DNA of 64,000 nt from Piscinibacter sp. (GCF_036377015.1 NZ_DASUZE010000116.1), one strand, 5' to 3'; shown: positions 44,492 through 52,190, counted from the first letter of the stretch. Notes: generated by a model from the sequence alone, not told the origin. A program made the numbers and translations.

Positions 44492-47278
44492 TCAGCTGAA
44501 GAAATCGGAACCCAAGGGCCCCACATCGTGCGAGCGCTGTGCATGGTCGAGGCGCTCCCTCAGTCGCACGACCCGGGCATAGGCTGGCGCCGAGGCGCCC
44601 ATCGCTCGGCGCAGGACCGGCTCCGCCGCGCTCAGGACGTCATTGGCCTCCTGGAACCGACCCAATGCCCCCAGTGCCACCGCACGGTTGACAGAGTACA
44701 GCGTCGTGAGCGGATGTTGCGCCCCGTAGACACCCGACATCTCGTCCTGTCCCTGGCCCAGCCAGCGCAAGCCCCCGTCCGGATCGCCTCCTTGCAACAG
44801 CGACACGCCCATCAGCGTCTTTCCGTAGGCGAGCATCGCCTTGGCGGGCAGACTGGTCTCACCTGCGGCCAATCGCCTGAGGACCTCGTCGATGCGTAGC
44901 CGGGCGGCGGCGGTCTCGCCCATGCGCAACTGCGACTCGGCCAGGACGAGGGCGGCAAGCGCGCGCAAGGGCGGGTTGATCTGCAGCTTCGCGCTCGGTT
45001 TGCCGAAGTCGGACAGGCGCTCGAACAGGGCCTGCTGGCGCGGCGACGGTCCACGCGCCGATTCCATGCGCAACAGCAGGATGGTCGCCTCGATTTGCAT
45101 CGCGGGGGACGCCGCATCCTGCGTCAATTGCTCGACGAAGGCGTCGTCCTGCGGGCTGAGCTGCGTCATGCCGAGCTTCAGCATCACGCGGGCCTTGCGC
45201 AGCACCAGCTTGCGGCACGACTCGTTGTTGGGCCCGAACTCGCTCACGCACGCCGGCAGCGTGGCCGCGATGTGTGAGAGCGCATCGACGAATCGGCCGG
45301 CCGCGTCGAGCAGTTCGGCCCGCGTGTCTGCCAGCACCGCCGGCTCCTGGGGGTTCTTGTCGCCGGCACGGGCGACCGCACGCTCCAGCTCGTCCTGAAG
45401 GGCGAGGGCGCCGTCGAAGTTTCGAAGCAACCGCTCGGCGTAGACCATGCCGCGCATCGCGCTGAGCGTTCGGTCGTGCCCAGGACCGAAGGCCTTGAGC
45501 GCATAGGCCTTGCTCTGGCGGAACAGGTCGCGGGCACGCGCTCCGTCGCCTTCGATGTGTGCGATCCAGCCACCGACCTCCTTCAGGCGGGCATTCAGCT
45601 CGGCGTCGGCCATGGGCCGGTCGGCCACATCCTCGGCCTCGCGCAGCAGCACGCCGGCGCGCTGCGCCTGCCCCAGGCGAAGGACCACGTTCGCATGCGA
45701 TGCCCGCGCCAGCACTTCCTGGCGGGGCATGTTCAGCTCGGAATACAGGCGCACGGCGTCCTCGAAGGTGCTGTCCGCATCGACGTACTCGCCCATGTCG
45801 CGCTGAATGGTCCCGATGCCCATCAGCAGCTCGGCCTGCAACCGCGGCTGCCCCGCCAGCCGCTTGAGCAGATCCGACCGCCCGCTCTGCAGCAGCTCGC
45901 GCGCGGTGATATCGGCCCCGCGCGACTTCTCCTGATCCGCCCGCTTGAACAGACTCAGCATGAAGTCGCGCGCCGCGCCCGCACGCGCCGACTCCTCGCG
46001 CGCCTGCATCCCCAGTGCCACCGCCACGCTGGCCACCGCGACCAGCGACGCGATCGCCGTCACCCCCAAGCCGAAGCCCAGCTTGTGGCGCGCCGCCAGC
46101 TTGCGCGTGCGATACCAGAACCCCGGAGCCCGCGCCAGCACCGCCTCGCCGCCCAGCCAGCGGTCCACATCAGCCAGCAGCGCGTCGACCGACGAATAGC
46201 GGCCGAAGGGCTTCTTGGCCAGGCAGCGCAAGGCGATCGCGTCGAGCTCGGGCGACAGCGCCTTGTGCAGCGCCTTGACCGTGGTGCCGCGCGCCTCGGC
46301 CGACGCCGGGGACAGAGGCCGCCGGCTCGGGGCGCGCGGCTCGACCTCGAGGATGGCGTGCTCCAGCTGCGCCGGCGAATCCACCCGCAGCTCGTACGGC
46401 CGCTCGCCGCACATCAGCTCGTAGAACACCACGCCCAGCGAGTACACGTCGCAGGCGGTGGTCAGCGGCAGGCCGGTGAGCTGCTCGGGGCTCGCATAAC
46501 GCGGCGTCATCGAGCGCCCGGCCTGCCGGGTGAGCTCGGTCTCGGCGATCGCGTCACCCTCGGCCTCGAGCAGCTTGGCGATGCCGAAGTCGAGCAGCCG
46601 CACCTCGCCCTGCGGCGTGACCAGGATGTTGGCGGGCTTGAGGTCGCGGTGGATCACCAGGTTGGCGTGTGCGTGCTGCACCGCCAGCAGCACCTGGCGG
46701 AACAGCTGCACCCGCTCGCGCAGCGGCAGCCGGCGCTCGTCGCAGAAGGCCGAGATGGACTGGCCCTCGACGTACTCCAGCGCCAGCCAGGCCTGGCCCT
46801 CGGCGGTGACGCCGGCATCGAACAGCCCGGCGATGTGCGGATGGCGCAGCGTGGCGAGGATGTTGCGCTCGCGGTCGAAGCGCGCCGCGAAGGACTCGCG
46901 GCCCGGCCGCGGATACGGCAGCTTGATCGCCACCTGGCGCTTGAAGACGCCGTCGTCACGGTCGGCCAGCCACACCTCGGCCATGCCGCCCTCGCCCAGC
47001 GGACGCACGAGGCGGTAGGGACCGACACGGCGCCCGGGCGACCAGTCGCTCCCAGGGGACGATTCGGCACGTGCCGACAACCTCGGCAAGGTACCCAGGA
47101 AGTCGTCGGTCTCCAGATGGGCGCGCGCCTCCAGCATGCGCCGCAGCTGCGGCAGCAGCGGGTGACGCGCCGACTCCAGGCGGGCGAGCCAGGCCGGCAG
47201 CGCGTGCGCCGGCAGCGCGTCGGCCTCTTCGTAGAGGGCCGACAACGCGGACCACTGCTGCTCGGGCGTGTGGTTCAT
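44492..47278 (-). CDS. Membrane Hanks-type Ser/Thr kinase with TPR-like C-terminal sensor (module 1)
   Basis: GEGGMAEV, VAIK, HRDLKPAN, DFGIAK, YASPEQ, DVYSLG; TM helix; helical repeats. Confidence 0.93.
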   Translation of the reverse strand: MNHTPEQQWSALSALYEEADALPAHALPAWLARLESARHPLLPQLRRMLEARAHLETDDFLGTLPRLSARAESSPGSDWSPGRRVGPYRLVRPLGEGGMAEVWLADRDDGVFKRQVAIKLPYPRPGRESFAARFDRERNILATLRHPHIAGLFDAGVTAEGQAWLALEYVEGQSISAFCDERRLPLRERVQLFRQVLLAVQHAHANLVIHRDLKPANILVTPQGEVRLLDFGIAKLLEAEGDAIAETELTRQAGRSMTPRYASPEQLTGLPLTTACDVYSLGVVFYELMCGERPYELRVDSPAQLEHAILEVEPRAPSRRPLSPASAEARGTTVKALHKALSPELDAIALRCLAKKPFGRYSSVDALLADVDRWLGGEAVLARAPGFWYRTRKLAARHKLGFGLGVTAIASLVAVASVAVALGMQAREESARAGAARDFMLSLFKRADQEKSRGADITARELLQSGRSDLLKRLAGQPRLQAELLMGIGTIQRDMGEYVDADSTFEDAVRLYSELNMPRQEVLARASHANVVLRLGQAQRAGVLLREAEDVADRPMADAELNARLKEVGGWIAHIEGDGARARDLFRQSKAYALKAFGPGHDRTLSAMRGMVYAERLLRNFDGALALQDELERAVARAGDKNPQEPAVLADTRAELLDAAGRFVDALSHIAATLPACVSEFGPNNESCRKLVLRKARVMLKLGMTQLSPQDDAFVEQLTQDAASPAMQIEATILLLRMESARGPSPRQQALFERLSDFGKPSAKLQINPPLRALAALVLAESQLRMGETAAARLRIDEVLRRLAAGETSLPAKAMLAYGKTLMGVSLLQGGDPDGGLRWLGQGQDEMSGVYGAQHPLTTLYSVNRAVALGALGRFQEANDVLSAAEPVLRRAMGASAPAYARVVRLRERLDHAQRSHDVGPLGSDFFS

Positions 47279-47371
47279 CGTGTTCCCGGGACTTGGTGCG
47301 GCAAGATCTTAGGGACGGGTCCGCAGGGGCGGAATCCCGACCTTGTAGGAGCGCGTCTCCACAAGTCGAAC

Positions 47372-47398
47372 TACGGAACGGGCCTGCGAAAGCGGACA
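47372..47398 (-). promoter_or_regulatory. Candidate ECF promoter TGTCCG-N17-CGTA upstream of kinase 1
   Basis: Sense TGTCCG ctttcgcaggcccgttc CGTA. Confidence 0.6.
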
Positions 47399-51501: not shown

Positions 51502-51611
51502 GCGCCCTCCCCCCGGTGCCGTGAATGATGGGTGCGACACCGGCCGGCCGCGTCCTCCCGTTGTAGGAGGCGCGCCGGCCGCCATGCCGGCCCGGCGCCT
51601 ACCCTGACGGG

Positions 51612-52190
51612 ATGGACACGGTCCTCGACCAGAACCCGCTGCCGCGCATCACCGTGCTGCTGCGGCACGCCGCCGGCGGCGACCGCGCGGCGCTGGATGC
51701 GGTCTTCGCCTCGCTCTATCCGGAGCTGAAGCGCATCGCCCGCTCGCGCCTGCGGCAGCATCGCCGCAACGAGGCGATGGACACGACCACCCTGGTGCAC
51801 GAGAGCTTTCTGCGGCTGGTCCGGGCGCAGGACCTGGACCTGGCGGACCGGCGCCACTTCTTCGCCTACGCCGCCAAGGCGATGCGCAACGTGATCATCG
51901 ACAGCGCCCGCAACCAGCAGGCCGCGCGCCGCGGCGGCGGGCTGCACCACGTGACCCTGGCCGACGACGCAGCCCCCGCGCCGCCGGCGAGCGACGACCT
52001 GCTGCGCATCAACGATGCGATGCAGCAGCTCGAGGCGGTCGATCCGCTCCTGGCCGAGGTGGTGGACATGCGCTACTTCGGTGGCTACAGCGAGCGCGAG
52101 ATCGCGGCGCTGCAGGGTGTGGACGAGCGCACCGTGAGGCGGCGTTGGGACAAGGCCAGGGCGTGGCTGTTCGTGGCGCTGGAAGAGTGA
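51612..52190 (+). CDS. ECF sigma factor (TIGR02999-like, kinase-associated) 2
   Basis: LYPELKRIAR, MDTTTLVHESFLRL, FFAYAAKAMRNVIID, TVRRRWDKARAWL. Confidence 0.92.
   Translation: MDTVLDQNPLPRITVLLRHAAGGDRAALDAVFASLYPELKRIARSRLRQHRRNEAMDTTTLVHESFLRLVRAQDLDLADRRHFFAYAAKAMRNVIIDSARNQQAARRGGGLHHVTLADDAAPAPPASDDLLRINDAMQQLEAVDPLLAEVVDMRYFGGYSEREIAALQGVDERTVRRRWDKARAWLFVALEE

Follow-up and report, generated by a model that had tools for sequence, protein, structure and literature searches.

Sigma factors of the extracytoplasmic function (ECF) group ECF43 are marked by a neighbouring Hanks kinase gene, the lack of an anti-sigma factor, and replacement of the acidic DAED/DxxD residues of region sigma2.2 by uncharged residues with Thr among them (PMC13147305, PMC8999054). 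The ECF43 consensus at this site is QTTA; EcfP of Vibrio parahaemolyticus reads STTA, where phosphorylation falls on the second Thr, and EcfK of Xanthomonas citri reads QATE, with T51 (PMC13147305, PMC8999054). The signal for PknS, the kinase of the EcfK system, is contact with amoebae (PMC13147305), and EcfP, the partner of PknT, has resistance genes under its control and reacts to polymyxin (Iyer et al. 2020 as summarised in PMC8999054). Here we describe two divergent sigma/kinase pairs, S1/K1 (module 1) and S2/K2 (module 2), within positions 44492-52190 of a 64,000-nucleotide stretch of DNA from a Piscinibacter sp. (the window). We give a probability of about 0.8 to the reading that they are two paralogous signalling modules of the ECF43 / PknS-EcfK type without an anti-sigma factor, in which the kinase switches the sigma factor by phosphorylation, together with the inferred output described below.

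The source genome is a 6.06-Mb draft of a soil/water betaproteobacterium and is Piscinibacter/Rhizobacter-like (Burkholderiales) by its closest relatives. The G+C content in the window was 70-78%, and third-position GC (GC3) was used to separate genes from abundant spurious open reading frames (ORFs). This genome is referred to as G000, a complete genome of the same genus as G008, and the loci of relatives by L-numbers (L011-L025). From 44067 to 52190 the gene order was sm48(-), sm62(-), K1(-), S1(+), sm124(-), sm94(-), K2(-) and S2(+). The kinase and sigma genes were as follows.

44492..47278, minus strand: K1, a PknS-like receptor Ser/Thr kinase of 928 aa
47408..48010, plus strand: S1, an ECF43-type sigma factor of 200 aa from 47408, the start common to orthologues (203 aa from the ATG at 47399)
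48751..51501, minus strand: K2, a paralogous PknS-like receptor kinase of 916 aa from the GTG at 51501 (944 aa from the in-frame ATG at 51585)
51612..52190, plus strand: S2, a paralogous ECF43-type sigma factor of 192 aa

The form of K2 on record in the protein collection was that of 916 aa.

Both sigma factors scored above the TIGR02999 cut-off of 126.15 bits (182.1 bits for S1 and 182.5 bits for S2) and matched PF07638 (E = 1e-46 and 2e-48, respectively). In place of DAED, S1 carried NTTMLVHE and S2 carried DTTTLVHE, letter for letter as the initial annotation had read them. The sigma2.2 motif of S1 (N59-T60-T61-M62; numbering from 47399) contained no acidic residue, as in EcfP, whereas that of S2 (D57-T58-T59-T60) retained the first Asp of the DAED position. 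All 15 S1 orthologues (70-93% identical) read N/S-T-T-x, and the S2 orthologue in G008 (72.5% identical) read QTTT. At the position of EcfK T51 and of the second Thr of EcfP STTA, T61 of S1 and T59 of S2 are the predicted phospho-acceptors. A linker Ser/Thr was also present six residues after RGGG in the sigma alignment (T117 in S1, T115 in S2), and was found in most orthologues and in all four other paralogues. Altogether the genome held six TIGR02999 sigma factors, each adjoining a kinase gene. S1 and S2 were 67% identical; their -35 recognition helix (ERTVRRRWDKARAWL) was the same at 15 of 15 positions, 29 of the 34 residues of the helix-turn-helix were identical, and the region that reads the -10 element was nearly identical in the sigma alignment.

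K1 consisted of an N-terminal three-helix extension (residues 1 to about 60), a Hanks kinase domain (88-366), a transmembrane (TM) helix (about 400-423) and a periplasmic TPR region (about 430-928). In both kinases the TM helix was the single hydrophobic stretch, at about 400-423 after basic residues, a topology taken from the sequence only. Pfam searches gave Pkinase at E = 4e-42 for K1 and E = 4e-39 for K2, with TPR_12 in the C-terminal half (E = 1e-14 and 5e-16, respectively). Pairwise alignment indicated that the catalytic motifs GxGxxG, VAIK, HRDLKPxN, DFG and SPE were intact in both proteins. The best PDB match of K1 was 9eed_A, which is X. citri PknS 1-364 (E = 8e-53, K1 residues 8-375); this alignment started at residue 8 of both proteins and took in the 83-aa N-terminal extension of K1. 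End to end, K1 and K2 were 45% identical; identity was 66% for the kinase domain but fell to 34% for the periplasmic part and to 32% for the N-terminal extension (first 80 residues). The extension, the cytoplasmic region in which K1 and K2 have diverged most, was 71-86% identical among most K1 orthologues and was present in every ECF43-linked kinase of the genome.

These data bore out most of the initial annotation, which had placed two divergent pairs at these positions, each with a kinase bearing a TM helix and a periplasmic TPR region, and had described similar kinase domains with divergent sensor halves. Its assignment of the sigma factors to phosphorylation-activated ECF43 is supported by the TIGR02999 scores, by PknS as the best PDB match, by the sigma2.2 Thr residues and by the lack of an anti-sigma gene, and its summary of the published ECF43 mechanism agreed with PMC13147305 and PMC8999054. 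It had also reported no anti-sigma gene nearby. In accord with that statement, a Pfam scan of the neighbouring ORFs gave DUF4148 or nothing for the small ones, and no anti-sigma family was matched among the ORFs of 44000-52400, a search that an anti-sigma type lacking a Pfam model would escape. Gene content, family membership, the presence and conservation of the motifs, and phyletic distribution were established directly.

The N-terminal extension was also considered as an anti-sigma-like domain. An AF2 model of K1 residues 1-95, built on a 13-sequence alignment, contained helices at 5-21, 24-36 and 42-57 (mean predicted local distance difference test score of 72, and about 90 for residues 10-50). 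A Foldseek search against the PDB returned no match at E < 1 and listed no anti-sigma factor, although a small bundle is a weak query; Pfam gave nothing, and the idea thus found no support. In PknS, the N-terminal extension has been described as conserved and of unknown role (PMC13147305).

The closest described system is that of EcfK and PknS in X. citri (ECF43; PMC13147305), which shares with the present locus the sigma family and the lack of an anti-sigma factor. PknS resembles K1 and K2 in its helical extension of about 80 aa, Hanks kinase, one TM helix and periplasmic TPR region, and EcfK resembles S1 and S2 in the Thr at the sigma2.2 phospho-position and in a conserved Ser/Thr in the sigma2-sigma4 linker. 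In contrast to that system, the genes here are divergent, two paralogous modules stand next to each other, the motif QATE is replaced by NTTM in S1 and DTTT in S2, and there is no type VI secretion cluster in the vicinity. As candidate outputs the locus has its own kinase operon and small proteins that are exported or lie in the membrane. EcfP/PknT of V. parahaemolyticus (ECF43) is comparable through S1, whose NTTM lacks an acidic residue as STTA does, but no resistance genes were seen at this locus and S2 retains one Asp. RpoE-RseA-type pairs share with the modules a two-domain sigma factor (sigma2 and sigma4), a membrane sensor, envelope-related outputs and -35/-10 blocks with CGT in the -10 element. 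Unlike those pairs, the modules have no anti-sigma factor, and the sigma factor is predicted to lack activity by itself, being turned on by phosphorylation instead of by release from sequestration. A further difference from canonical ECF pairs is that the sigma gene here has no copy of the target promoter.

Candidate promoters were sought with the pattern (T/C)GTCCG-N17-CGTA, with the extended form TGTCCG(C/G)TTT-N13-CGTA(T), and with a position weight matrix (PWM) that was trained on the sites of relatives alone and then run over this genome. Exact matches in the window numbered three where 0.16 would be expected, and each lay on the minus strand, upstream of one of the minus-strand genes K1, sm48 and sm94.

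47372..47398, minus strand: P_K1, candidate ECF43-type promoter directed at K1, TGTCCGCTTTCGC-N-CCGTA
44239..44265, minus strand: P_sm48, candidate ECF43-type promoter, TGTCCGTTTC-N13-CGTA
48698..48724, minus strand: P_sm94, candidate promoter after the K2 stop and before the sm94 start, CGTCCGCTCC-N13-CGTA

P_K1 had the best PWM score in the 6-Mb genome (34.8) and P_sm48 the second (26.1). P_K1 was conserved upstream of K1 in eight of 15 loci, and the motif preceded the sm48 family in every relative locus that covered the position, including L012, in which sm48 lies about 6 kb from the kinase. At the same position upstream of sm94, G008 carried TGTCCGCTCC-N13-CGTAC. In both species the bases after TGTCCG were CTCC at the module 2 sites versus (C/G)TTT at the module 1 sites. 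P_K1, on the strand opposite to S1, occupies the stretch 10-36 nt upstream of the likely S1 start codon, and therefore the K1 and S1 transcription units overlap head to head. No PWM site above 9 was found upstream of S1, S2 or K2 on the relevant strands; the region upstream of K2 keeps just TGTCCA, which overlaps the S2 start codon. Further top PWM matches were at C117:60224-60260 (+), C89:45102-45138 (-) and C117:21111-21147 (-). The C117:60224 site was upstream of a gene for a DUF3365-like (CxxCH) HAMP protein that is divergent from the C117 (third) sigma gene, the C89 site was upstream of the kinase of that ECF43 module, and the C117:21111 site was upstream of another kinase. The distribution of these sites suggests that one promoter type is common to the ECF43 modules of the genome, with kinase autoregulation as a recurring feature.

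The sequences upstream of S1 (47335-47362) and of S2 (51551-51577), both on the plus strand, share CC..TTGTAGGAG.GCG. At that place the S1 orthologues have TTGCAA or TTGAAC within a conserved GGAATCC-N-TTGNAA...TAAGAT block. The shared block may be a promoter of the sigma genes' own or an operator. A consensus scan for sigma70-type promoters and terminators gave none above shuffled background.

Four small envelope-protein genes accompany the modules. The initial annotation had noted small exported or membrane genes after each module, and the GC3 frame and conservation indicated that these are real.

44291..44479, minus strand: sm62, 62 aa, in which a signal peptide is followed by a Gly-rich TM helix and then by a basic tail (...CWWRCRKHRK), assigned by GC3 frame
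44067..44213, minus strand: sm48, a small membrane protein of 48 aa with a C-terminal TM helix (...NPWPALGWIVLAAAV..TAFLLAPLP), assigned by conservation
48351..48635, minus strand: sm94, an exported DUF4148 protein of 94 aa with a signal peptide (PF13663, E = 8e-7, 29.8 bits against a cut-off of 27)
48014..48388, minus strand: sm124, a lipoprotein-like small protein with a lipobox-like LLLAC, assigned by GC3 frame and translation

The sm62 start is 12 nt beyond the K1 stop, and the two genes probably share a transcript. An equivalent with a signal peptide and GGGFAGGL.GALLACWLCKRR followed K1 in 11 relatives, and the G008 version was more divergent. Across L011-L025, proteins of this family have about 65 aa, comprising the signal peptide, a short spacer, the Gly-rich TM helix (GGGFAGGL.GALLACWLC) and the basic tail. 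Their C-terminal part loosely resembles sorting tails of the GlyGly-CTERM type, with almost no mature domain before it. The sm48 gene was found in the loci of nine relatives by tblastn, and module 1 may control it as part of its regulon. In L014 (5839-6111), L015 (13082-13345) and L016 (5012-5272) the promoter motif occurred twice downstream of K1, and L014, at least, had two sm48-like genes there, so that the small-protein output has been duplicated in some lineages. In module 2, sm94 had a G008 orthologue (61% identical) and three paralogues elsewhere in the genome. The likely start of sm124 is at 48349, 1 nt after the sm94 stop, and its G008 orthologue was 63% identical over residues 62-115. 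Pfam returned no match for sm48, sm62 or sm124.

The two modules differed in distribution. Module 1, with its two small membrane-protein genes, was conserved in every relative examined; it was found in 15 relatives (K1 orthologues) with conserved transglutaminase...MltB synteny, and in 13 relatives the syntenic locus held one module only, orthologous to S1/K1, between the transglutaminase gene and MltB. Of 16 genomes of the genus, only G000 and G008 carried module 2, with an identical gene order that included sm94 and sm124. When the periplasmic region of K2 was compared with a large protein collection, a search of limited sensitivity in which 8000 word-sharing candidates were scored, it matched K2 and its G008 orthologue only. 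Between G000 and G008, module 2 diverged faster than module 1: S2 was 72.5% identical versus 93% for S1, and K2 was 55% (55-57%) identical versus 65% for K1.

The initial annotation had called the modules tandemly duplicated. This held insofar as S1/S2 (67%) and K1/K2 (45%) stand side by side and are mutually closest paralogues among the six modules of the genome, but the copy is old and confined to those two genomes of the genus. In the kinase tree, K1 and K2 formed a clade (support 99/99), the K2 proteins of the two species grouped together (98/98), and this pair branched outside the K1 orthologues as a whole (92/95); the K1 nearest to that of this genome came from a relative without module 2. 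A recent tandem duplication was disfavoured: forcing K2 to join the K1 proteins of G000, G008 and L017 cost 22.9 log-likelihood units, with a P-value of 0.059 in the approximately unbiased (AU) test, which is not a formal rejection. Module 2 is most likely an old paralogue that has been lost repeatedly, to judge from the tree and the loci compared, and at this AU value it may instead be a younger, accelerated copy. In this lineage module 1 represents the ancestral, conserved unit, and module 2 is a rare, fast-evolving accessory copy.

From homology and motif conservation we infer a mechanism whose signal, phosphorylation steps and sigma-promoter pairing would run as follows. By homology with the described systems, the periplasmic TPR domain of K1 or K2 would sense a cue, upon which the kinase would autophosphorylate and then phosphorylate its partner sigma factor on the second sigma2.2 Thr (T61 in S1, T59 in S2). 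The linker Thr (T117 or T115) would probably be phosphorylated as well. The added negative charge would replace the DAED acidic patch and allow the sigma factor to bind the beta' clamp helices of RNA polymerase, and the active sigma factor would read TGTCCGnTTT-N13-CGTA promoters, as the conservation of the motif suggests. In module 1, P_K1 would drive K1-sm62 and so feed back positively on the sensor, and P_sm48 would drive sm48; in module 2, P_sm94 would drive sm94 (DUF4148) and sm124 (lipoprotein-like).

Several observations weigh against this scheme. Strict dependence on the sigma2.2 Thr is not assured because S2 keeps an Asp and because EcfK, which likewise has one acidic residue in its motif, works in X. 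citri even as the T51A variant, for which the linker site T106 can stand in (PMC13147305); S2 may be less strictly phosphorylation-dependent. The linker Thr of S1 and S2 is likely the equivalent of EcfK T106, as judged solely by numbering and conservation. As for the promoters, P_K1 was degenerate or absent in seven of the 15 relatives. P_sm94 was weak by PWM (10.9), in a genome that has 36 sites above 9. Furthermore, YGTCCG-N17-CGTA occurred in eight copies genome-wide, which is about the chance level and similar to the counts for other spacer lengths, and enrichment of the exact pattern across the genome was rejected. Because the exact pattern is not enriched, the promoter case draws on local clustering, position and cross-species conservation.

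The TGTCCG...CGTA sites might instead be read by another ECF sigma factor or bound by a transcription factor, with the S1/S2 regulon elsewhere. The missing genome-wide excess speaks for this, as does the absence of the motif upstream of the sigma genes themselves, whereas many ECF sigma factors autoregulate (PMC7826278). We regard this explanation as unlikely: two blocks at fixed spacing are the layout of an ECF promoter, the motif accompanies the S1/K1 module in every relative, even where sm48 is 6 kb off in L012, and the best remaining PWM matches adjoin other ECF43/kinase pairs of the genome. A still less probable view is that module 2, as a redundant copy, has no function of its own and is drifting or in decay, and that module 1 is the sole working pathway. 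Its absence from 14 of the 16 genus genomes and from all 13 other syntenic loci, the faster divergence of its orthologues and the lack of a PWM site upstream of K2 would fit such decay. However, the ORFs of K2 and S2 have remained intact in two species, deep divergence notwithstanding, K2 has kept all of its catalytic motifs and S2 the recognition helix of S1, sm94 and sm124 with their promoter motif stand beside module 2 in both species, and the GC3 of module 2 (0.91-0.93) is typical of coding sequence.

The initial annotation had proposed two inputs with a possibly shared output, with which the identical -35 helix and the TGTCCG...CGTA core common to both modules are consistent, although that proposal stays an inference. 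Because the recognition helices are identical, overlapping S1 and S2 promoter sets, and with them a shared output, are plausible. Taken further, the modules may be uninsulated, so that either kinase acts on either sigma factor and on the same promoters, as one OR-gated pathway with two sensors. The nearly identical -10-reading regions and the 66% identity of the kinase domains favour this, but the K1 and K2 extensions are only 32% identical against 71-86% among most K1 orthologues, which fits partner-specific docking, and CTCC replaces (C/G)TTT after TGTCCG at the module 2 sites of both species. Moreover, the genome has four more ECF43 modules with related promoters, so some insulation must exist. 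We hold this OR-gated arrangement to be possible but doubtful. The divergent extension and periplasmic domain of the kinases point to separate inputs and possibly to separate docking. We propose, just as tentatively, a circuit of two sensors and one promoter family, in which the three-helix extension would be the sigma-docking domain of ECF43-linked kinases and would insulate each kinase-sigma pair.

The genes around the modules belong to other systems. The left neighbours are TgpA (40760-42979) and MltB (42741-44066), whose longest ORFs overlap by 239 nt (42741-42979, plus strand). Because homology to MltB begins only near residue 127-138, the true MltB start is probably well downstream of the longest-ORF start. 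The right neighbour (52418-62486, minus strand) is a cluster for a transglutaminase, a circularly permuted ATP-grasp protein and an alpha-E protein; it adjoins the S1/K1 module in all relatives and is apparently a separate system. No PP2C phosphatase was found in the window, and six were found elsewhere in the genome. One PP2C-type phosphatase gene (C117:56586-57164, plus strand) sits some 1.2 kb from the kinase gene of the ECF43 module on C117.

Activation of a sigma factor by Thr phosphorylation has already been established in Vibrio and Xanthomonas, and the locus does not alter this principle. Its additions are modest, namely a patchily distributed accessory paralogous module, a candidate kinase-feedback promoter and small envelope proteins as likely output. 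What appears new here is the conserved candidate promoter, which would place the kinase, not the sigma factor, under feedback, with the small envelope proteins as its likely further targets. With three promoters and four small envelope genes, the candidate regulon is short and easily read, and the locus is a compact natural test bed, with two related pairs that have diverged sensor and N-terminal regions and identical recognition helices. It therefore lends itself to direct tests of how specific the partners are, whether they cross-talk and what the extension does, and the promoter motif provides a handle for regulon prediction in this ECF43 subfamily of Sphaerotilaceae-like Burkholderiales.

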